Virus record (IMG/VR): IMGVR_UViG_3300016484_000479 | Span: 1-45,088 of that record | Length of the DNA stretch: 45,088 nucleotides | DNA from: a virus | Lineage: Duplodnaviria > Caudoviricetes | Strand: one strand, 5' to 3' | Shown here: in pieces, positions 2,961 to 42,115 of the stretch | How positions within the stretch are numbered: position 1 is the stretch's first letter | How the letters are laid out: each line of letters begins with the position of its first letter | The notes under the pieces: generated by a model | What the model was told of the DNA's origin: nothing | Seen by the model: the letters and a program-made list of their open reading frames with translations, nothing else | Database searches by the model: none | Program-made: the position numbers and the translations under genes

Positions 2961-3301
2961 GGCCCTCTATGTCCCGACTATCCCAGTTCTTCGATGTCAA
3001 GCAGGTGGCCGATCAGGCCCTAGCCGCCGGTGGTGGCACCTACACTCTCCCCACCCACGGCGACGCGGTTCACTGGCGCCAGCGCTTCTACCGTTTCCGC
3101 AAGGCGTGGCACAAGGAGTTCGCTGACCCGGCTTACGACTCCATCATCCTCCGGCGCGTGGCCGAAGGGTCCGCCACTGTCCACATCGAAATCCAGCGGG
3201 TGCTGGGTAACTTCGTCCCGGCCGGCGAGAGCCAACCATCGGCCGATCTTTTCGCCGAGGCGGAACTGTTCGCCAAGAAACTGAATGGAGACATCCTGTG
3301 A
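2957..3301 (+). CDS. Hypothetical protein
   Basis: ATGA overlap, codon bias. Confidence 0.7.
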   Translation: MRPSMSRLSQFFDVKQVADQALAAGGGTYTLPTHGDAVHWRQRFYRFRKAWHKEFADPAYDSIILRRVAEGSATVHIEIQRVLGNFVPAGESQPSADLFAEAELFAKKLNGDIL

Positions 3302-4959: not shown

Positions 4960-6384
4960 GTGTTCACCCCAACCGACGAACAACTCGCCATCGTTGACGC
5001 CGCCGTCAACTCCACCGACAACCTCCTCATCCAAGCAGGCGCCGGGGCGGCCAAAACCTCCACCCTTGAGCTCGTTGCCAAGGCCCTGCCGGACACCGAA
5101 ATCCTCTGCCTCGCTTTCAACAAAAAGATCGCGCTGGAGATGACCGAGCGGATGCCGGCGAACGTCAAGGCCATGACCCTCAACGCCATCGGCCACCGAG
5201 TCTGGATGGACTCGTCCGGCCGCCGGTTGCGCCTCGAGACCGACAAGACCTACAAGATCATGAGCGAGCTCATCGAGGCCCTCCCTTCCTCTTCCCGCCC
5301 CTACGACTCGATGGGCGAGCTGATGAAGCTCGTCGGCTTCGGCAAGCAATGCGGTTACGTCCCGACTGACCACTTCCCCCAGGCCCGCGGCCTCATGTCC
5401 GACGAGGAGTTCTTCGCCCACATCGACCTTAAACTCTCCGACATCGAGTTCGACCTTGTGCGCTCCGCCACGGTCCAGTCAATCACCCAAGCCCTCTCTG
5501 GCCTCATCGACTTCGACGATCAGGTCTTCATGCCAACCATCTTCTCCGGCTCCTTTCCCCGCTACAAGCTAACCCTCGTAGACGAGGCCCAAGACCTGTC
5601 CTCCCTCAACCACCGAATGCTGCACAAGATGGTCGGCACCCGGCGGCTCATCGCAGTTGGCGATCGCGCCCAGGCGATCTACGGTTTCCGCGGCGCGCAC
5701 GAGGAGTCGATGAAGAAGCTGGGCCAAGAGTTCTCTTGCCGGGAGCTCCCCCTCACCTTGACCTTCCGATGCCCCGAGACCCTCGTCGCCCACGCGCGCT
5801 GGCGTGCCCCGCTCATGCGCAGTAACAAGCCCGGCGGCGAGGTCAAGACCCTCGGGTCTTGGTCCTCCGACTCCATCCCCGACGGCGCCTTTATCCTCTG
5901 CCGCAACAACGCTCCGCTGTTTCGCACGGCCGTCCGGCTGCTCAAGCAGTCTCGGCACTGCGAGCTTTCGTCCGGCGACGTTGCCAAGCAGCTGCTCAAA
6001 GTCATGACCAAGTTCGGTCCCAAGTCCCTCACCCAGCCCGAGGTGCTCGACAAGATCGAGGCGTGGAAGGAGAAGGAGAAGGCCAAGCTCAAGCCCCGCG
6101 CCCACGGGCTGGTTCACGACAAGGCCGAGTGCATGGTCATCTTCGCCAACGCAGGTGCCACCCTCGGCGAGGCCCTGGCCTACATCAACCACCTCATCAA
6201 CTCCACCGGTTCAATCAAGCTCTACACTGGCCACAAGGCCAAGGGTCTCGAGACCGACCACGTGTTCATCCTCGACAAACAGCTCCTCGACGACGAGGGG
6301 CAGGACCTCAACCTCCTCTACGTCATGCAAACCCGCGCCAAGCAGACCCTCACTTACATCGACTCCGGGGGTTACGTTGGGTGA
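4960..6384 (+). CDS. UvrD/Rep-like superfamily 1 helicase
   Basis: Q motif (PTDEQ), Walker A AGAGAAKT, DEAQD, GDRAQAIYGFRGA, TGHKAKGLE, YVMQTRAK. Confidence 0.92.
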   Translation: MFTPTDEQLAIVDAAVNSTDNLLIQAGAGAAKTSTLELVAKALPDTEILCLAFNKKIALEMTERMPANVKAMTLNAIGHRVWMDSSGRRLRLETDKTYKIMSELIEALPSSSRPYDSMGELMKLVGFGKQCGYVPTDHFPQARGLMSDEEFFAHIDLKLSDIEFDLVRSATVQSITQALSGLIDFDDQVFMPTIFSGSFPRYKLTLVDEAQDLSSLNHRMLHKMVGTRRLIAVGDRAQAIYGFRGAHEESMKKLGQEFSCRELPLTLTFRCPETLVAHARWRAPLMRSNKPGGEVKTLGSWSSDSIPDGAFILCRNNAPLFRTAVRLLKQSRHCELSSGDVAKQLLKVMTKFGPKSLTQPEVLDKIEAWKEKEKAKLKPRAHGLVHDKAECMVIFANAGATLGEALAYINHLINSTGSIKLYTGHKAKGLETDHVFILDKQLLDDEGQDLNLLYVMQTRAKQTLTYIDSGGYVG

Positions 6385-6388
6385 GGCC

Positions 6389-6421
6389 GATATGCCTCTA
6401 CCCTTTAGGGGTCAATATGCC
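6389..6421. promoter_or_regulatory. Dispersed ACCC-N5-GGGT element, copy 2
   Basis: GATATGCC-TCT-ACCC-TTTAG-GGGT-CAA-TATGCC just after the helicase stop. Confidence 0.7.
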
Positions 6422-7981: not shown

Positions 7982-8916
7982 CCGCCCCCTCCTCCTTCGA
8001 CGCCTCGGGCGTTCAATTCGCGTGGGATTCCACCTCGATCAAGCTCGCCGAGACTTGCCTTTACAAGTATCAGCTCAAGATGATCTTTGGCTGGCAGCCT
8101 GAGCGCAAGTCCGCCCACCTTATCTTCGGCGGCATCTACGCTTCGGCCCTCGAGAACTACCACAAGGCCATAGCTGACGGCGTGGACCGCGAGCAGGCCG
8201 TGCGCGACACCGTTCACGAGGCGCTGATCGAGTCATGGGAACATGAGCTGGACGAAGCGGGCGAGCCCATCGTCGGCTCCGGCCATCCGTGGGAGTCCGA
8301 CCACAACCTGAAAACCCGCGGCAACCTCATCCGTTCCATCGTCTGGTATCTCGATCACTTTCAGGACGACTCATGCGAGACCGTCATCCTCTCCGATGGC
8401 CAGGCCGCGGTTGAATATTCCTTCAAGCTCGAGGCCGACGATGGCATTATCCTGTCCGGCCACCTCGACCGCCTCGTCAACTACGCAGGCCACCTCTACA
8501 TCCAAGACCAGAAATCCACTGGCACCACGATTTCCTCGCGGTTCTTCGAGCAGTTCAACCCCGACACTCAGATGTCCCTCTACACCTTCGCGGGCAAGTC
8601 GATCTTCAACCTCCCGGTCAAGGGCGTAATGATCGACGCTGTGCAAGTGGCGGTCGGCTTCAGTCGGTTCGAGCGAGGCTTCACCTTCCGGGCTGAGGAT
8701 CAGCTTAACGAGTGGTATGACGGCGCAATGTCCACCATCGAGCGCGCCCAAGCCGCCACCCGCGCTGGTTACTTCCCGATGAACCCCAGCTCTTGCGGTA
8801 ACTACGGCGGCTGCGAGTTCCGTAACGTCTGCTCGAAGGCGCCCTCGGTTCGCCAGCAGTTCCTCAAGGCTGACTTTGTCCAGGGCAAGATTTGGAACCC
8901 GCTGGAGTCACGCTAA
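7978..8916 (+). CDS. PD-(D/E)XK RecB/Cas4-like exonuclease with probable Fe-S cluster
   Basis: GHLDRL, IQDQKST, QMSLY motifs; one N-terminal Cys plus C-terminal CGNYGGCEFRNVC. Confidence 0.88.
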   Translation: MTAPSSFDASGVQFAWDSTSIKLAETCLYKYQLKMIFGWQPERKSAHLIFGGIYASALENYHKAIADGVDREQAVRDTVHEALIESWEHELDEAGEPIVGSGHPWESDHNLKTRGNLIRSIVWYLDHFQDDSCETVILSDGQAAVEYSFKLEADDGIILSGHLDRLVNYAGHLYIQDQKSTGTTISSRFFEQFNPDTQMSLYTFAGKSIFNLPVKGVMIDAVQVAVGFSRFERGFTFRAEDQLNEWYDGAMSTIERAQAATRAGYFPMNPSSCGNYGGCEFRNVCSKAPSVRQQFLKADFVQGKIWNPLESR

Positions 8917-12278: not shown

Positions 12279-13549
12279 TGACCAGCGGCACCTTTCAATC
12301 CTTCCCCCTCTCCGCCATCTTCGTCGACCGCAGCACGCGACAGCGGAAAGAGCTTCGTAACATCGACGAGCTGGCCGAGTCCATCATGCGCTTAGGCCTC
12401 ATCCACCCGCCGGTCATTACCCGAGACGGGCTGCTTATCGCCGGCGAGCGACGAGTCACGGCCATGCGGCAGCTGGGTTGGACTGACACGCCCGTTCAGT
12501 TCATCGATGACCTTTCCGAATACGAGCTTCAGTCGATCGAGTTCGAGGAGAACGTCAAGCGCCTCGATCTCACTTGGCAGGAAGAGGTCGATGCGGTCGC
12601 TCGGTTCCACGAGTTGAAGGCCAAGCACGAGCCGGGCTGGACTCAAGAGCGCACGGCCGACGAACTCGGTCTGTCCCAGTCCCACACCCAGCGCTTGCTC
12701 GCCGTCTCGAAAGAGATGGACAACGAGAAGGTTCGATCCGCCGACAAGCTCACCGCCGCGGTCAACCTCGTCGAGCGCTCGCTTAGCCGCCGCAAGACAA
12801 CCCAGGCGGCCGACCTTTCCGCCACCATCAGCCAGGTGTTCGAGCCCGCTGCCCCCACTGCCGAGCCCACCGCCCCGACCATCCCCCTCATCAACGCCTC
12901 GTTCCACGAATGGCAGGCCAGCTACACCGGGCCGAAGTTCAACCTCATCCACTGTGACTTCCCCTACGGCATCAACGTGGCTGAAGGCCCCCGACAGAAC
13001 TCATCCCTCTCCGATTTCTATGAGGACACAGCGGACGTTTACTTCGACCTCCTTCACCGCCTATCCCTTGCCATGGACAACGTGGTGCACGAGTCAGCTA
13101 ACCTCATCTTCTGGTTCTCTATGCACCACTACAGCGCCACGCTTGACATCCTCACCCGCATGGGCTGGACGGTCAACCCGTTCCCGCTGGTCTGGCACAA
13201 GTCGGACAACAGCGGTGTGGCGCCCGATCCCGCCCGCTGGCCTCGGCGCACCTACGAGACAGCCTTCGTCGCTTCCCGCGGCGACCGCAAACTCACCATG
13301 GCTGGCCCCAAGGCGGCGAGCTTCGCTTGGGCTGGGCGCGAAGAGAAAGTCCATATCAGCCAGAAGCCGATCCCGATGCTCAAGCACTTCATGTCCATGT
13401 ATTGTGACGAGTATTCCATCGTGCTCGACCCGACTGCCGGCAGCGGTAATGCGATCAAGGCTGCCGAACAGCTTGGCGCTCTATCCTGCCTCGGCCTTGA
13501 GCTTGACCGTGAGTTCTTCGAGGTGGCCTGTGCGAATTGGGCGACTTGA
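12278..13549 (+). CDS. ParB-N/HTH fused to a beta-class N6-A/N4-C DNA methyltransferase
   Basis: LIAGERRVTA ParB motif, WTQERTADELGLSQS HTH, motif IV DFPY preceding motif I LDPTAGSG, HISQKP. Confidence 0.88.
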   Translation: MTSGTFQSFPLSAIFVDRSTRQRKELRNIDELAESIMRLGLIHPPVITRDGLLIAGERRVTAMRQLGWTDTPVQFIDDLSEYELQSIEFEENVKRLDLTWQEEVDAVARFHELKAKHEPGWTQERTADELGLSQSHTQRLLAVSKEMDNEKVRSADKLTAAVNLVERSLSRRKTTQAADLSATISQVFEPAAPTAEPTAPTIPLINASFHEWQASYTGPKFNLIHCDFPYGINVAEGPRQNSSLSDFYEDTADVYFDLLHRLSLAMDNVVHESANLIFWFSMHHYSATLDILTRMGWTVNPFPLVWHKSDNSGVAPDPARWPRRTYETAFVASRGDRKLTMAGPKAASFAWAGREEKVHISQKPIPMLKHFMSMYCDEYSIVLDPTAGSGNAIKAAEQLGALSCLGLELDREFFEVACANWAT

Positions 13550-13574
13550 CATTCGTCCCAACTTGTGCTAGGCT
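13546..13574 (+). promoter_or_regulatory. Sigma70-type promoter for the replication operon
   Basis: TTGACA-17bp-TAGGCT with extended -10 TG. Confidence 0.7.
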
Positions 13575-13595
13575 ACACTTTCATTCGGAGTCCTT

Positions 13596-14600
13596 ATGTC
13601 AAACATCATGCTGGTAGGCGAAGCTTGGGGCGAGAAGGAGGAAGAACTCCACCGCCCCTTCGCCGGAGCATCGGGCTGGATACTAAACCAGATGCTCTCC
13701 CACGCCGGTCTCGCTCGTGAGGATTGCTACGCAACCAACGTATTCAACCTGCGGCCTCGCCCATCCAACGACGTTAAGAACCTGTGCGGCTCGAAGTGGG
13801 AGGGTATCCCCGGTTTGCCCGAACTGCAGAAAGGCAAGTATGTCCTTGCTCAATACGCCAGCGAGCTCGACCGACTGTTCGACGAAATCCAGCGGGTCAA
13901 CCCCAACGTCATTGTGGCTCTCGGAGCTACTCCGGCATGGGCGCTTTTACGCTCGACTGGAATTAAGTCCATCCGGGGGGCTGTTGCACCGACACATCCC
14001 GCTGTCAGCGATCGACTTGGACGGACCTACAAAGTCCTCCCAACCTACCATCCGGCAATGGTCCTCCGAGACTACTCAGCCCGCCCGGTCGTCACCTCCG
14101 ATCTGGACAAAGCCCGACGCCAGTCCGAGTTTCCTGAAATCCGCCGCCCCGAGCGCCACATCTGGCTTTCCCCCTCCTTGGACGATCTCGCCCTCTATGA
14201 GCGACAGCACATTCTCCCGGCCGAGCGTCTCGCTTGTGACATCGAGACTGTCGGCACACAAATTACTTGCATCGGTTTCTCGCCAAGCCCTGACTCATGC
14301 TGCGTCATTCCATTCTTCAAGGGCACGAACCAGTCCTACTGGTCTTCGGTAGCCGAAGAAGTCGAGGCCTGGAACTACGTCCGCCGCTGGTTGAAGAAAC
14401 CCTGCGTCTTCCAGAATGGCCTCTACGACATGAGCGTCCTCTGGCGCCACCACCACATCCCAGCCGCAGCTTCCGAGGACACCATGCTCATGCATCATGC
14501 GTGGCAGCCCGAGATGGAAAAGGGCCTTGGCTTCCTCGCCACCCTTTACACCGACGAAGCCAGCTGGAAGTTTATGCGAAAGGGACTCAAGCATGATTAA
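13596..14600 (+). CDS. Family 4 UDG-like domain fused to the N-terminal part of a PolA 3'-5' exonuclease (polymerase subunit 1)
   Basis: MLVGEAWG, PFAGASG, TNVF, PTYHPAMV (UDG); CDIET (ExoI), QNGLYD (ExoII), DTMLMHH; no ExoIII. Confidence 0.85.
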   Translation: MSNIMLVGEAWGEKEEELHRPFAGASGWILNQMLSHAGLAREDCYATNVFNLRPRPSNDVKNLCGSKWEGIPGLPELQKGKYVLAQYASELDRLFDEIQRVNPNVIVALGATPAWALLRSTGIKSIRGAVAPTHPAVSDRLGRTYKVLPTYHPAMVLRDYSARPVVTSDLDKARRQSEFPEIRRPERHIWLSPSLDDLALYERQHILPAERLACDIETVGTQITCIGFSPSPDSCCVIPFFKGTNQSYWSSVAEEVEAWNYVRRWLKKPCVFQNGLYDMSVLWRHHHIPAAASEDTMLMHHAWQPEMEKGLGFLATLYTDEASWKFMRKGLKHD

Positions 14601-15282
14601 AACAGCTGTTTTTATGTTCGACACTACTGGGTTAGCCGCTGAGCCCTTTACATGTCGGGGGGTTACGACCTATATCATAGACACGCAAAACGTAGGTGAG
14701 CGCAGTCATAACCCGCGGGCCACTTACGTGTTAGACTGGGATATACGGGAAACCGTAGAAAAGACAGCCGCACTGAAGCCGGACCTTCTTATAGGTTTTC
14801 CGCCTTGCACAGATCTTGCTGTGAGTGGTGCGCGTCATTTCAAAGCTAAAGCTGCTCGTGATCCAGACTTTCAGAAAAAAGCGTTGGAGCTATTTCTGAC
14901 CGTGAAGACTGTGGGCAACTTGGCCGGGTGTCCTTGGGCTGCTGAAAATCCAAACAGCGTAGTATCTACATTATACCGAAAACCAGACATAACTTTTCAT
15001 CCCCACGAGTATGGGGGTTATCTCCCTGAGACTGACCAACACCCGGACTGGCCCCGTTATATTCCGGCCAGAGACGCTTACCGCAAAATGACTAACTGGT
15101 GGACCGGCAATGGGTTTAAGATGCCCCGGAAAGCGGCTGTGCCGATTGAGCCTTTAGGTAACTGGAACCCCCAAACAACCTTATTAGGGGGTAAGTCCGT
15201 AAAGACTAAAATGATTCGGTCAGCTAGCCCCCGTGGGGTTTTTGAGGCCTTGGCCCAGCTTTACTGTAGCGAAAGGAGTTAG
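14593..15282 (+). CDS. Short phage C5-cytosine DNA methyltransferase-like protein (lower GC)
   Basis: GFPPCTDLAVSG catalytic PC motif, ENP motif, C-terminal IRSASPRG. Confidence 0.8.
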   Translation: MIKTAVFMFDTTGLAAEPFTCRGVTTYIIDTQNVGERSHNPRATYVLDWDIRETVEKTAALKPDLLIGFPPCTDLAVSGARHFKAKAARDPDFQKKALELFLTVKTVGNLAGCPWAAENPNSVVSTLYRKPDITFHPHEYGGYLPETDQHPDWPRYIPARDAYRKMTNWWTGNGFKMPRKAAVPIEPLGNWNPQTTLLGGKSVKTKMIRSASPRGVFEALAQLYCSERS

Positions 15283-15283
15283 C

Positions 15284-15466
15284 ATGGCCCGCCAATACAT
15301 CAACAAAGAGACTGGGCAATTCGAGGACTCAACCGTCATCGAACAAGAGGTCGAGCAATACAAGCGCTTGATCGCCCTTGGCGTGACTGACGAAAAAGAC
15401 CTAGCCCATCGCCTCGCTACCAGCGTCCGCGCCGTGCGTAAACTACGCAAGCACATAGGAGAATAG
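15284..15466 (+). CDS. Small hypothetical protein, possible HTH
   Basis: AAGGAG RBS; EKDLAHRLATSVRAVRK. Confidence 0.6.
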   Translation: MARQYINKETGQFEDSTVIEQEVEQYKRLIALGVTDEKDLAHRLATSVRAVRKLRKHIGE

Positions 15467-15468
15467 CC

Positions 15469-15852
15469 ATGGAAAACTTCACCAAGTCCTGCACCCGCAC
15501 CGAGTCCGGCGCCGTTCCCCTCGGCCACAAGGAACTGTCCCGCCTGCTCCACGCTGCGATGGGCCTGTCTACCGAGTCTGGTGAGTTCATGGACCAGCTC
15601 AAGAAGCATCTTTACTATGGTAAGGAGCTCGACGAGCACAACCTGCGCGAGGAGCTCGGCGACCTGCTGTGGTATATCGGCATCGCCTGCGACGCCCTGA
15701 ACACCACGGTCGAGCTCGAAATGGCCCGTGTGATCAACAAGCTCATGGTCCGCTACCCCGACCGGTTCAGCAATTACCTCGCCCAGAACCGCGACCTCGA
15801 TGCCGAGCGCACCGTGATCGAGCAGGCCAACGGCAACCAGATCATCGCTTAA
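15469..15852 (+). CDS. MazG-like all-alpha NTP pyrophosphohydrolase
   Basis: GLSTESGEFMDQLKK...EELGDLLWY acidic motif, KLMVRYP. Confidence 0.88.
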   Translation: MENFTKSCTRTESGAVPLGHKELSRLLHAAMGLSTESGEFMDQLKKHLYYGKELDEHNLREELGDLLWYIGIACDALNTTVELEMARVINKLMVRYPDRFSNYLAQNRDLDAERTVIEQANGNQIIA

Positions 15853-15899
15853 CCTTCCCGTTCCGAGGCGGCCGATGTGACAACGGGCTGGAGAACCAC

Positions 15900-17408
15900 A
15901 TGCGCATAATCAACACTGCCGAGCTTGACTTGCTCAACCTATCCACCGACGAAAACTACTGGGTTTACAACGGCCTTGACAACTGCGTGACGCTCGAAAT
16001 TTTCAACGAGCTCAACGCCATGATCGACGACACCGCGCGCCACACATACGAGTTTTCCAAAGCACTTCAGGCCCCGGTGCTGGAGATGAATATGCGCGGC
16101 GTGCTGGTCAACCAGAACCGGCGCCGCGAGGTCATCGCGGATTTCGAGGCCAAGACCCGGCGGCTGGAAGCTCAGCTATCCGTCATCCTCGACGGCGTAT
16201 TCGATCTGCGTGGGTTTAACTGGGCCAGCCCGGCACAGTGCAAGAACCTCTTCTACGAAGTCATGCGCCTCCCGGTGCAGAAGAAGCGAAACGCCCACGG
16301 CATCTTCGCCCCCTCGACTGACCGAGCCGCGCTGGAGAAACTATCCATCTATCCTGTAGCCGAGCCAATCATCAACCATGTGCTGATGCTACGCGACTTG
16401 GGCAAGAGCCTTGGTTTCCTCCGCACCCCACTTGACTCCGACGGTCGCCTTCGCACGACGTTCAACATTGCGGGCACAGTGACCGGCCGGTTCGCCTCAT
16501 CCGCCGATGACTTCGGCACTGGCACCAACCTCCAAAACATCACCGAGTCGCTCCGTTCCATTTTCGTCGCCGATCCGGGCTACAAGTTTGCAAACCTTGA
16601 CCTCGAGCAAGGCGATAGCCGCAATGTGGGCGCCCTCTGCTGGAACTACTTTGTAGAGTCCCACGGTGAAACCTTCGCCGGTGCCTACCTCGACGCCTGT
16701 GAGTCCGGTGACCTCCACACCTACGTGACCAAGCTGGTCCAGCCCAACCTCCCATGGGGCAGTGCACCGGACCGTCAGATCGCTGACCTCCCATTCTACC
16801 GAGCGAAGTCCTACCGCGACGGGTCGAAGGCACTGGGCCACGGGTCGAACTACCTCGGCAAGGCCGCACACATGGCCAAGCAGACTAAGTTTCCATTCCG
16901 CGACGTTGAGAACTTCCAGAAGAAATACTTCGAGACCTTTCCCTGCATCCCTGAGTGGCACAAGCGGGTGTTCTGGAAGCTGGAAAACCTTGGCTTCCTT
17001 GAGAACCTCTTCGGTCGCCGCCGGTGCTTTTTCGGGCGGTTGAACGAAGATGCAACCAGGCGTGAAGCTGTGGCTCATGAAGGCCAGTCAATGACTAGCG
17101 ATGAGATCAACACTGGTCTGCTCAACCTGTGGCGCGCCAACCGGGTGCAGCTACTGATCCAGGTCCACGACTCAATCCTTTTCCAGTTCCCTGAAGAGCA
17201 GGAAGACGAGATCGTCCCGTGGGCGCTGGAGGCCCTCAAGGCCCCGCTGGTCCTTCTACGCGACCGGCCTTTTGTGGTGCCTACGGAAGCCAAGGTAGGC
17301 TGGAATTGGGGCAACCATAGCCCTGATAACCCCGATGGCCTAACCAAGTGGAAAGGCCACGATCCCCGCACCCGCACCGAAACTCGTTTCAAGTTGAGCC
17401 TCCTGTGA
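15900..17408 (+). CDS. polA: Family A DNA polymerase (ExoIII helix + polymerase domain; subunit 2)
   Basis: YNGLD ExoIII, TVTGRFAS, NLQNI, motif A DLEQGDSR, motif B KALGHGSNY, motif C QVHDS; GGAG RBS before ATG 15900. Confidence 0.93.
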   Translation: MRIINTAELDLLNLSTDENYWVYNGLDNCVTLEIFNELNAMIDDTARHTYEFSKALQAPVLEMNMRGVLVNQNRRREVIADFEAKTRRLEAQLSVILDGVFDLRGFNWASPAQCKNLFYEVMRLPVQKKRNAHGIFAPSTDRAALEKLSIYPVAEPIINHVLMLRDLGKSLGFLRTPLDSDGRLRTTFNIAGTVTGRFASSADDFGTGTNLQNITESLRSIFVADPGYKFANLDLEQGDSRNVGALCWNYFVESHGETFAGAYLDACESGDLHTYVTKLVQPNLPWGSAPDRQIADLPFYRAKSYRDGSKALGHGSNYLGKAAHMAKQTKFPFRDVENFQKKYFETFPCIPEWHKRVFWKLENLGFLENLFGRRRCFFGRLNEDATRREAVAHEGQSMTSDEINTGLLNLWRANRVQLLIQVHDSILFQFPEEQEDEIVPWALEALKAPLVLLRDRPFVVPTEAKVGWNWGNHSPDNPDGLTKWKGHDPRTRTETRFKLSLL

Positions 17409-18616
17409 AGCGTCGCCTCCCCAACTTCATCGACGGGTTCATGCAGTTCATGGCGGACAAAGGCTCGCCTACGCTCTATACCCGCTGGACCGCAATCTTT
17501 GTCTTGGCCGCTGCGTGTGAGCGCCGGGTCTGGCTTGAGACGGTTAAGGGGGTGCTCTACCCAAACCAATACATCATCCTTGTCGGCCCCGCTGGTATCG
17601 GTAAGAGCGTGTGCACTAACTATGCATACGATCTGCTCGACAGCTTACGCACTCCTGAGTCCGAGTTCCACATCGCCCCAACCAGCGTAACCAAGGCATC
17701 CCTTATTGACGCACTGGAGAACGCGGAACGGCGGCTGGTCCGCCCGACTCACGTGCCCCCGGTCGTCACCTTCAACTCCCTCTCGATCATCCCGAACGAG
17801 CTGGGTGTCTTCCTTCCCTCATGGGAGGGGGACTTCATGAACGTGATGACCGACCTGTGGGACTGCAAGCGGTATTCCGAGAAGCGCCGGACGAAGAACC
17901 TGTCGATCTCGATAAGTGCCCCGCAGCTCAGCATGCTGTCCGCCACAACGCCGGCCTACCTGAACGGGTTCTTGCCCGAAGGCGCCTGGGAACAAGGCTT
18001 CATGTCCCGAACGCTCCTTGCCTTTTCCGGCGAGGTTATCCACAGCGATCTATTCGCTGAGCGGGTGGTCGACGAAAAGCTGTGGGCCGACCTGTGCGCC
18101 GACCTCAAGGAGGTGTATAAGTTGTTTGGGGAACTGACCGTCCTTGACGAAACCAAAGAGGCGCTTAACGCTTGGTCACGGTCAGGCGGCCACCCGGTTC
18201 CTGACCACCCGAAGCTCATGTCCTACAACACTCGTCGGCCAGCCCACTTGCTTAAACTCTGCATGGTTGCCTCGGTCGCCTCGGACAGTGAGCTAACCGT
18301 ATCCCTCGACCACTTCGTCGAGGCCCTTGATTGGCTCACCGAACTTGAGGCCTTCCTCCCCGACATCTTCAAGTCAATGAGGACGGGTGGTTCGGGCGCG
18401 GCGATCGACGAGTGCTGGCACTTCTGCTACGCGGAATACCTGAAGAAGAACAAGAAGCCGGTGCCTGAACCCCTGCTTTATGCCTTCCTCCAGGAGCGCG
18501 TGCCAGTGCACTCCGTCGCCCAGATTATCGAGGTCATGGTCAAGGCTGGTGTGCTTACCAAGCAGATGACGGAAACAGGCGGGATAGGCTACCTGCCGAA
18601 AACCCGTAGCGCATGA
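17405..18616 (+). CDS. DUF3987-like AAA+ ATPase, putative replicative helicase without primase domain
   Basis: YPNQYIILVGPAGIGKS Walker A, IIPNE Walker B variant, GFMSR arginine finger; GTGA overlap with pol. Confidence 0.75.
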   Translation: MKRRLPNFIDGFMQFMADKGSPTLYTRWTAIFVLAAACERRVWLETVKGVLYPNQYIILVGPAGIGKSVCTNYAYDLLDSLRTPESEFHIAPTSVTKASLIDALENAERRLVRPTHVPPVVTFNSLSIIPNELGVFLPSWEGDFMNVMTDLWDCKRYSEKRRTKNLSISISAPQLSMLSATTPAYLNGFLPEGAWEQGFMSRTLLAFSGEVIHSDLFAERVVDEKLWADLCADLKEVYKLFGELTVLDETKEALNAWSRSGGHPVPDHPKLMSYNTRRPAHLLKLCMVASVASDSELTVSLDHFVEALDWLTELEAFLPDIFKSMRTGGSGAAIDECWHFCYAEYLKKNKKPVPEPLLYAFLQERVPVHSVAQIIEVMVKAGVLTKQMTETGGIGYLPKTRSA

Positions 18617-18620
18617 GGGC

Positions 18621-18654
18621 GATATGCCCCAACCCATAAAGGGTCAAGGCATAC
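18621..18654. promoter_or_regulatory. Dispersed ACCC-N5-GGGT element, copy 3, at the convergence of both arms
   Basis: GATATGCC-CCA-ACCC-ATAAA-GGGT-CAA-GGCATAC occupies most of the 43-bp gap between convergent stops. Confidence 0.75.
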
Positions 18655-30792: not shown

Positions 30793-30809
30793 GGTCGTTC
30801 TCCAGTTTG

Positions 30810-30843
30810 GATATGCCTTTACCCATTAAGGGTCGGGGCATAC
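30810..30843. promoter_or_regulatory. Dispersed ACCC-N5-GGGT element, copy 4, just after the MCP stop
   Basis: GATATGCC-TTT-ACCC-ATTAA-GGGT-CGG-GGCATAC. Confidence 0.75.
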
Positions 30844-40660: not shown

Positions 40661-42115
40661 TTAATGCCCCGAGTGATTGACGGTCGTCGAGGAAACCGTG
40701 GTCCCTGAGGTGATCTTGCCGAAGCGATTCTTACTCGGACCTCGCGCGTAATCATTCAACTGCGTGATGGGGTCATTCGACAGCCCGCCCACCGGGGGTG
40801 ATGCGCCAGCCTGCCCGCCGAGCAGTGCCTGTGTTGCACTGATCGTGCTTGATCCGCAGGTTTTCGGGTCGCCCGCAACGCCGTTCTGATCAACTCCGAC
40901 ACACTTGCCCAGCCACTCGGCCAGGATGACGGAATCCCATCCGTTCATCCAGTCGAAGTGGAACGTCGAACCCGGCGCGCGCCAGTTCTCTTCCGAAAGG
41001 CCGTGGCGGTCGCTGGAGAGATACCAGTGCTGATAGTCCGCCCATCCGTTATGGGTGAACTCGACCTTGGCCGTGAAGTGCGGAAGCTTCCACCATCCCT
41101 GCGGGCAGATAGCCGTGTTCATGTCAGCGAGCTTGTATATCGCATAACGGAAGTGATCGCGCCCGTTGGGGCTGGTCAGATTGTGGCCGTCCCAGCATGA
41201 TGGGGCCGTGATGTTGGCGAGGAAGAACGTGATGGGGTTGGAGACATCGGGATCGCAGGCCCCCGCCCAGGGGTCGGTGCCATCGGAATTGACCAGAACC
41301 CGGCTGTAAATGTCCGTGCCGGGCCTGTCTTCGGACGCAGTGGGGTTGATCGGAACTGCCGCGTTGTAGGTCGCGCCCTTGTAGCAGGCGAACCCGGTCC
41401 ATCCCTGTAGATAAGCCGCGCGCAGGTGATTACCCGTCTTGTTCCACCCAGCCCCGTCGGGGATTTCCGCCAGCCGCGCTGAGGATGTGGGATCAGACGG
41501 GTTGACGCCGCCAATGAAGGCCAGCCCGCGCGGCAGGCGGTAGATGTAATCAGATTCCGCATAGGTGCCGAGCACGTAGTAGAAGGTCACGATGTCCGGC
41601 TTGATCGGGACATTCACGCCCGGCTTGATCGTCTTGAACATCGTCGGTTCCCAATAGGCAGTGCCCGTCAGGGGGCCGCCAGCGCAGGTCGAACCGGGAT
41701 TGTTCCGCAACGTCGTGTAGGTGGAGTTGTGGTCGGTGTTCTTGTTCCCGATGAAGGTGTGATGGTGCCCGCTGTTAGCCTGTCCATAGAACAGGATGGG
41801 ATCGACCCTGGCGAAATGGCTGAAGTTGCAGGTCAGGCGGAACTTGGCTTCCCCGCCGTCCACCCGGTCCACCGAGCCGGTCAGCCACTGGCTGCGGGTA
41901 TAGTTCCCGTTCTCGTCGATGGCTGCGGGCTCGTAAGCCAGTGCCGGGGGGTCGCCGCCTTGGTTGGCGGTCGAGACTTCCGGCAGGTTGTTGTTGCCGT
42001 CACCAATGACGGGCGGCACGGCCCACACCGGGGTCTGCTCCCCGATGGTCCACGACTGCGCGAAGGCTGTGGAAGGGACAAGCGACAGGAGGAGAAGAAG
42101 GGCAAGGCGAAGCAT
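40661..42115 (-). CDS. DUF1996-like protein with N-terminal signal peptide
   Basis: MLRLALLLLLSLVPSTAFA signal; FRLTCNFSH..VDPI..G..SGHHHTFIGN, AYWEP, PSCWDG, HFDWMNGWD. Confidence 0.75.
   Translation of the reverse strand: MLRLALLLLLSLVPSTAFAQSWTIGEQTPVWAVPPVIGDGNNNLPEVSTANQGGDPPALAYEPAAIDENGNYTRSQWLTGSVDRVDGGEAKFRLTCNFSHFARVDPILFYGQANSGHHHTFIGNKNTDHNSTYTTLRNNPGSTCAGGPLTGTAYWEPTMFKTIKPGVNVPIKPDIVTFYYVLGTYAESDYIYRLPRGLAFIGGVNPSDPTSSARLAEIPDGAGWNKTGNHLRAAYLQGWTGFACYKGATYNAAVPINPTASEDRPGTDIYSRVLVNSDGTDPWAGACDPDVSNPITFFLANITAPSCWDGHNLTSPNGRDHFRYAIYKLADMNTAICPQGWWKLPHFTAKVEFTHNGWADYQHWYLSSDRHGLSEENWRAPGSTFHFDWMNGWDSVILAEWLGKCVGVDQNGVAGDPKTCGSSTISATQALLGGQAGASPPVGGLSNDPITQLNDYARGPSKNRFGKITSGTTVSSTTVNHSGH

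Follow-up and report, generated by a model that had tools for sequence, protein, structure and literature searches.

The window analyzed here, a 45,088-nucleotide stretch of viral DNA (Duplodnaviria; Caudoviricetes), is the whole of the IMG/VR record IMGVR_UViG_3300016484_000479 and has an estimated completeness of 98%. Two genes on its plus strand together encode the parts of a DNA polymerase of family A: gene N, whose product (chain N) carries a UDG (uracil-DNA glycosylase) domain and the beginning of a proofreading exonuclease, and gene C, whose product (chain C) carries the remainder of the exonuclease and the polymerase domain (Table 1). The 1299 nt between them are filled by a methylase gene, a 60-aa open reading frame (ORF) and a MazG-like gene. 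A sequence-only reading of the window had placed the break between the exonuclease motifs ExoII and ExoIII and had named the three intervening genes; the motifs, the Pfam matches and the alignment to a fused relative bear out the former, and the three genes are indeed present.

Gene organization of the locus

Gene N (334 aa) starts with ATG, with GGAG 5 nt upstream. Residues 2–162 of its product match the Pfam family UDG (E 4e-20) and residues 211–320 match DNA_pol_A_exo1 (E 5.9e-6). ExoI reads DIET at 215–218 (D215/E217) and ExoII reads QNGLYD at 273–278 (N274/D278), after which the chain stops 9 residues past ...ASWK, both the WK and the tail being conserved. The AlphaFold model of chain N has a mean predicted confidence (pLDDT, predicted local distance difference test) of 90.7, falling below 50 in the tail (328–334).

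Gene C (502 aa) likewise starts with ATG and has its own ribosome-binding site (RBS), GGAG 6 nt upstream, as had been read from the sequence. ExoIII reads YNGLD at 23–27 (Y23, D27), and residues 86–471 match DNA_pol_A (E 1.7e-31; PF00476 110 bits, cut-off 34.3). All three polymerase motifs are found (A, D234; B, R306/K310/H314/Y318; C, H423/D424), with R306, K310, D234, H423 and D424 invariant, and the model (pLDDT 87.4) has a Klenow-type fold that Foldseek matches to KlenTaq and Bst (E 7e-21 for KlenTaq). By motifs and predicted fold, chain C would thus be a family A DNA polymerase. The expectation that the gene starts with the ExoIII helix was correct in assigning ExoIII to this chain and incorrect about the start, which lies 22 residues earlier, in a head that is absent from fused relatives.

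Table 1. Features of the polymerase locus, with positions in the window and the basis of each assignment.
Feature	Position	Strand	Basis
Subunit N: UDG domain and first part of the 3'–5' exonuclease	13596..14600	+	Pfam, PHROG, alignments, AlphaFold model, Foldseek
Tail of gene N: probable RBS and overlapping start (ATG 14593) of the next gene	14574..14600	+	sequence; codon bias, resampling
Dcm-type C5 DNA methyltransferase	14593..15282	+	phrog_757, phage Dcm matches
60-aa cargo ORF	15284..15466	+	no family match; homologue in locus L005
MazG-like nucleotide pyrophosphatase, cargo gene	15469..15852	+	Pfam PF03819, phrog_229
Subunit C: ExoIII helix, last exonuclease helices, complete predicted family A polymerase domain, clade-typical C-terminal extension	15900..17408	+	Pfam/NCBIfam, alignments, model, Foldseek
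22-residue head of subunit C (M-K/R-I-I-x-T...)	15900..15965	+	conservation, complex model

Conservation of the split among relatives

Aligned to the fused relative P0005, chain N covers residues 16–343 and chain C residues 355–803; since the two alignments adjoin, the chains tile one ancestral chain. The survey comprised 194 records (193 loci and the window), the loci being the closest matches to the window and not a random sample. Both halves lie on one strand in 175 of them, a number that still includes contig repeats, and the cut point is identical in 172 of these, window included; the remaining three are fused there. One locus (L159), not recognized by the motif pattern, was left out; the other 171 split loci reduce to 146 pairs free of repeats, which fall into 127 clusters at 90%, on which the cluster counts below are based. 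Locus L005 was kept out of the counts, as its halves lie on opposite strands and the junction interrupts both its ParB-methylase gene and its MazG gene, an arrangement treated as a likely assembly inversion. It is the closest relative (79%); its contig seems to be inverted at the broken MazG gene, with the junction near 3155, and at 5120–5581 a nuclease-like ORF (our own reading, with no Pfam match) occupies the slot of the window's methylase.

In a profile search with 8000 proteins scored, 2108 of N length reached E<=1e-30, and the best 120 of these all end 9–15 residues past WK and lack ExoIII. A search for longer proteins gave 107 matches, the best fused form being 40% identical. The same cut, with intact motifs and two different genes between the halves, occurs in the Caulobacter phage Kuura, described as a cultured, plaque-forming podophage (PMC9959647); its gene N is gp029, annotated as hypothetical, and its gene C is gp026. 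In the window, positions 13300–17700 are covered by one contig of run X1, which is possibly the source sample, with 0 differences, and runs X2 and X3 cover the polymerase region in part. The split in the window is not sequence damage.

Trees were built for the N part and the C part on their own, and in each of them a branch parts 100 split rows from 100 fused rows (FastTree support 99 and 100). These trees were computed with FastTree only, their root is untested and long branches occur among the fused rows. Two points weigh against reading them as proof of a single event. The split set was made up of the 80 matches most similar to the window out of 534 and likewise out of 563, and the fused set was drawn from a separate search, so that monophyly is partly favored by the sampling; and agreement between the N tree and the C tree is only moderate (distance r 0.71; nearest neighbor within the top 3 for 68 of 100). 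The split as such is real, old and common to a large clade, and we infer that it goes back to one ancient gene fission in a surface loop following the conserved WK. Abutting genes were considered as the ancestral state, which is unsupported, the seven abutting rows in the tree being nested.

A predicted composite proofreading site

An exonuclease site of the DEDDy type requires all three Exo motifs, which contribute D/E (ExoI), D (ExoII) and Y/D (ExoIII). All of them are present and invariant among the split clusters, yet they are spread over two chains instead of a single polypeptide: D215 and E217 are kept in 125/125, D278 in 127/127, and Y23 and D27 in 127/127. The polymerase site is equally constant (D234 in 123/123; H423/D424 in 115/115). 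The invariance of catalytic residues on both chains indicates that both halves are selected for one active site.

A model of the N–C complex, built from our own 94-row alignments, reached a score of 0.88, the best of three controls reaching 0.00. Of 157 solved complexes 116 attain this mark, as do 2 of 215 mismatched pairs, a benchmark that applies only roughly to a model made from our own alignments. Across runs, contact agreement was at least 89% and the pLDDT of the partners at least 85, with about 230 contacts. Residues 16–39 of chain C are predicted to touch residues 211–217, 224–239, 271–276 and 290–306 of chain N, so that ExoI and ExoIII both lie inside the modeled interface; the ExoIII helix (Y23, D27) would dock into chain N beside D215, E217 and D278. 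Residues 1–9 of the new head belong to the modeled interface as well (pair N189–C4, expected error 0.6 Å), where the head is predicted to add a strand to the exonuclease sheet of chain N and would thereby enlarge the contact area. T6 of the head is kept in 113 of the 127 clusters and is written with all four Thr codons, which indicates that the head is conserved as protein. The conserved tail of chain N was also considered as a binding element; this is weakened by its pLDDT below 50, by residues 329–334 not being named in the interface and by an RBS-like codon bias.

Against the weight of the model it must be said that the halves of a split gene tend to pass such a test through their likeness to solved single-chain PolA structures, so that the score speaks for likeness more than for binding. 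Inter-chain covariation (mutual information with average product correction, 100 pairs) returned only pairs driven by gaps and kinship. The complex model supports binding without showing it. With the cut, its conservation throughout the clade, the separate starts and stops and the invariant catalytic residues of each chain as observations to be explained, we consider it probable (roughly 85%) that this family A polymerase is encoded as two genes cut between ExoII and ExoIII, whose products come together, with no splicing, as an obligate heterodimer with a predicted composite proofreading site. The assembled enzyme would replicate and proofread as its fused relatives do. The earlier proposal that proofreading exists only in a heterodimer is accordingly judged likely on the strength of the residues invariant on both chains and of the model, with the reservation just made about its score.

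The halves might instead act apart, chain C as an exonuclease-less polymerase and chain N as a free UDG that keeps a vestigial piece of nuclease. A parallel is offered by the CCPols, said to retain only the last three exonuclease helices and to use another partner (PMC10201439), and each chain alone gives a confident model. The catalytic residues of ExoI, ExoII and ExoIII, invariant over 125–127 clusters, would however be hard to explain without a formed site, and the complex model also speaks against separate action, which we regard as extremely unlikely.

Two chains or one polypeptide

Across the 127 clusters, the distance between the genes ranges from −4 to 1628 nt (median 551) and leaves remainders of 0, 1 and 2 on division by three in 46, 29 and 52 clusters, respectively. 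The halves abut or overlap in ten of the clusters. Rfam gave no match at E<=1 in 13000–18000, and no family match was found for the new ends of the chains (eight heads and three tails in NCBIfam, six heads and one tail in Pfam). The distance from WK to ExoIII in fused forms has a median of 9 residues (84 of 100 measured), whereas split forms have a tail of 13 (range 8–19 aa) and a head of 23 (range 20–34 aa), about 36 added residues in all. Neither intein halves at the new termini nor a structured intervening RNA with a fixed frame relation were thus found.

These data bear on the possibility that the two genes still yield a single polypeptide, through RNA splicing, ribosomal bypass or frameshift, or protein trans-splicing. 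The gap of the window is a multiple of three, HNH genes occur in 8 of the 127 gaps, and some fused relatives contain inteins, one of which (in P0057) lies inside ExoIII. Nonetheless, gaps of such variable length in all three frames, ten abutting pairs with no room for an intron, the lack of Rfam and family matches and the added residues at the new ends all argue for two separate chains, as does a Shine–Dalgarno (SD) sequence of at least 3 nt at the C start in 107/127 clusters. The intein of P0057, moreover, follows the YN of ExoIII and hence lies downstream of the cut. A single product is therefore highly unlikely, and the earlier statement that there is no intein or intron stands. The head of chain C was also considered as a relic intein half, a reading that was rejected; it has no family match, and this same intein, the only one nearby, lies after the ExoIII YN.

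The polymerase lineage attracts insertions in general. Inserts of about 300 aa occur in two split C chains (L040, 7351–9789; L186, 4480–6972), and in Vibrio phage VS-ABTNL-3 (L004) the break lies elsewhere, within the polymerase domain, and a gene separates the parts.

Predicted activities of the two chains

Family-4 UDGs are characterized by motif A (GE-x-x-G), an E/F/N uracil pocket and motif B (HP), and their N-terminal segment and cysteines carry an Fe–S cluster. Chain N has a family-4-like UDG domain at about residues 1–178, in which all three motifs are found by alignment to the T. maritima enzyme (G8, E9, E15, F22, N48, H152, P153), and Foldseek matches the chain to family-4 UDGs, the top match being the phiLo polymerase 9qhs. 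The Fe–S segment and its cysteines were not found in chain N, where the profile begins at 1l9g residue 39 and the Cys of KCRP is replaced, and the chain stays below the curated family-4 cut-off (TIGR00758 88.6 bits vs 125.3). Among the split clusters, E9 is kept in 113/122 and F22 in 118/122. From these residues the domain may excise uracil; telling against such a role throughout the clade, H152 and N48 differ in a minority of clusters (kept in 105/125 and 98/123).

In chain C, position B3 of motif B, which we take to be the F762 position of E. coli, is H314 (16839–16841); His occurs there in 119/119 split rows and in 74 of 84 measured fused rows, and is thus a trait of the wider lineage and not of the split. 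D239 (16614–16616) places Asp at what is presumably the position of the E. coli steric-gate residue Glu710; it is at least 90% conserved in a 26-row alignment, and Kuura has Glu there, unlike the window. The residues named at the F762 position in passages of two sources (PMC10201439; 10.64898/2026.05.20.726624) are Tyr, Phe and Leu only, and a literature check, which was not exhaustive, found no mention of 'His762'. Judging from the residues, such a His/Asp pocket could change nucleotide selectivity. The C-terminal extension of chain C (about 17310–17408) carries an N-P-x-G-L motif in 88/109 split C chains vs 7/100 fused ones and lies outside the modeled N–C interface; it may bind another replication protein. 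A motif of the β-clamp type was sought at this end and is weak (strict form 6/109, loose form 18/109).

The gap as a probable cargo slot

It is the DNA that explains the conserved tail of chain N (K-K/R-E-D type). Among the final five codons of gene N, Arg is written AGG in 53% of cases vs 5% for the body of the gene, and GGA stands for Gly in 81% vs 24%; SD 5-mers occur within the last 24 nt of 81 out of 126 genes, whereas codon resampling gave a mean of 47 and a maximum of 59 in 500 draws. The bias and the SD excess together explain the tail as an RBS, and the next gene starts between −14 and +5 of the gene N stop, i.e., coupled, in 117/126. It is therefore likely that the tail encodes a ribosome-binding site, making the gap a cargo slot: a gene landing at the stop would likely be expressed at once, which would explain the revolving content.

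This content amounts to 197 ORFs of 95 families in the gaps of the 127 clusters. By representatives, the commonest families are DUF1937 (48), DUF7768 (17), a small protein without a name (13), HNH (8), KTSC (7) and MazG (6); a deoxynucleoside monophosphate kinase, a deoxycytidine triphosphate deaminase and a nucleoside deoxyribosyltransferase occur once each. The cargo would thus include nucleotide-metabolism genes and HNH nucleases and, in the window, a methylase. The window's MazG-like gene matches Pfam with E 5.5e-9, its family being present in 6/127 gaps; the 60-aa ORF has no Pfam, PHROG or NCBIfam match and has a clear homologue in L005.

The methylase matches phrog_757 (E 6e-61) and, over 96–97% of its length, is 47–48% identical to phage genes annotated as Dcm. 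Its GC content of 0.50, also 0.50 at third codon positions (GC3), stands against 0.54–0.62 (GC3 0.66–0.86) in six other measured genes, and it is found in the gap of the window alone among the 127 clusters. A near-identical contig of run X3 joins position 14597 directly to 15267. The low GC content, the unique occurrence and the absence from this contig make it likely that the methylase is a recent insertion at the stop of gene N, with an inserted stretch of about 14598–15266; we infer that it takes its start from the N tail and its stop from the downstream flank. What speaks against this history is that the empty-site allele is known from a single contig of 287 nt.

At the other end of the gap, C starts are coupled to the upstream ORF in 90 of 121 clusters (six doubtful rows left out) vs 158 of 1442 internal start-like codons (11%). 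The window itself is a counterexample, as a 47-nt spacer precedes gene C and its start is not among the coupled ones. Coupling at both ends favors a fixed subunit ratio over a tuned one, and both genes are likely translated together from a single operon, in a roughly constant proportion.

The sequence-only reading had proposed that fidelity or processivity could be tuned by the subunit ratio. In a fuller form of this idea, free chain C or a loosened complex would copy without proofreading and free chain N would scan for uracil as a glycosylase, giving an adjustable mutation rate. Separate genes permit such regulation, and differential regulation has been raised for S-SBP1-like splits (Czernecki et al., PMC10201439). 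More than 40 nt precede the C start in 15 of 113 clusters, the window included, and the spacer of the window folds at −11.5 kcal/mol, a value without a shuffle baseline. Tuning by ratio nevertheless finds little room in an operon so tightly packed and coupled, with ten abutting pairs nested in the tree and, in the window gap, no promoter-like site and no plus-strand terminator-like site. Furthermore, the modeled contacts and the passage of the cut within a folded domain speak for a complex that is stable, and PolAs are reported to need the exonuclease domain for stability (PMC10201439). A regulated split is thus unlikely; if true, the His/Asp nucleotide pocket and the nucleotide-metabolism cargo would suit altered nucleotide pools.

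Comparison with known split and fused polymerases

The fission of exonuclease and polymerase genes has been described in the T7-like cyanophages S-SBP1 and S-TIP37 (Czernecki et al. 2023, PMC10201439; PMC12695635), where a family A polymerase is likewise divided into two genes and predicted to reassemble like the intact enzyme. The exonuclease gene of S-TIP37, which was the one read of the two, retains ExoIII (YCVQD near its end), so that the catalytic site remains on one chain, whereas in the window the cut precedes ExoIII and divides the catalytic residues. The window shares with these S-SBP1-like enzymes (cluster 5) the separate genes, but neither ExoIII on the first gene nor the Tyr at B3; they are T7-like with overlapping genes, while the window clade belongs to the UDG-fused lineage with His at B3 and cargo in the gap. 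In Pseudomonas phage PaP3, exonuclease (orf39) and polymerase (orf32) are also two genes, with six unrelated genes between them; unlike in the window, ExoIII (YCLQD) lies on the exonuclease chain and there is no UDG domain. The position of the cut thus differs in kind from the S-TIP37 and PaP3 splits, both of which are cut after ExoIII. Further split phage polymerases have been reported (10.1101/325100, PMC10580990, PMC12695635), and a literature search that left aside supplements and most subscription papers found none described as split between ExoII and ExoIII.

Essential phage enzymes that assemble from two chains without splicing are known from other families. The fragmented ribonucleotide reductase NrdA-a/NrdA-b of phage Aeh1 is reported to be active as a split enzyme (PMC3045599), and the halves of split gp43 (gp43A/43B) of T4-like Aeromonas phages are reported to co-purify and to be active (PMC2988022). 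By analogy, Aeh1 NrdA is the nearest mechanistic precedent, as its active site is fragmented and its new terminal tails are described as essential for activity. It was cut by the endonuclease mobE, and in the window clade only the head of chain C looks structural, the tail of chain N looking like an RBS.

Single-chain UDG–PolAs (SPO1-like, SP15-like phiLo/YerA41, N4-like cluster 17) have the same order of UDG, exonuclease and polymerase. Fused enzymes with an active UDG have been characterized (PMC13697223), in a text in which the word 'split' has 0 occurrences. The SP15-like enzymes are one chain with large inserts (9qhs, 1142 aa, vs 334+502 in the window), and the N4-like ones are one chain with lost UDG residues and Phe at B3; the window's polymerase belongs to neither type. 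Among fused forms, the closest to it come from Microcystis phage Mel-JY34 and Manatee Spring ctMlz233, along with P0005-type proteins, at no more than 40% identity.

Genomic context

The polymerase genes are part of a plus-strand replication operon with genes for a UvrD helicase, a PD-(D/E)XK nuclease, AAA_24, a ParB–methylase and a DUF3987 primase-like protein. The minus strand encodes Bbp16, Bbp19 and GP7 capsid families, a head–tail connector and T7 gp14-like virion genes, and we read the window as the genome of a podophage. The ParB–N6/N4 methylase fusion (12281–13549) directly precedes gene N, and similar methylases likewise lie upstream of the polymerase in fused relatives. A DUF1996 domain protein (40661–42115) is found among the tail-side genes; for a suspected ParB-like insert in the large virion protein, neither Pfam nor NCBIfam gave a match. 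A 34-nt repeat stands at gene ends (6382–6415, 18614–18647, 30803–30836; weaker copy at 8564–8597). It contains a short ACCC...GGGT palindrome, the minus strand of two copies has the sequence TTGACC...GCATATC, and from its sequence it is a possible candidate promoter or operator. Near the left end of the record, an imperfect inverted repeat (64 nt, 75%) lies at 135–198 and 506–569.

Implications for the phage clade

Split family A polymerases have been described only recently, and the two that were checked (S-TIP37, PaP3) leave the proofreading site undivided. In the present clade, of which well over 100 lineages were sampled, the catalytic site itself is divided over the products of two genes. 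A cultured member, Kuura on Caulobacter, makes assembly of the composite exonuclease directly testable, and the natural cut point offers enzyme work a two-component polymerase with the exonuclease switched on or off. The clade is mis-annotated, as UDG or hypothetical proteins together with a 'short' PolA, which affects phage surveys based on polA. Finally, a tail that likely encodes a ribosome-binding site would be a simple reason for a cargo hot spot inside an essential enzyme.

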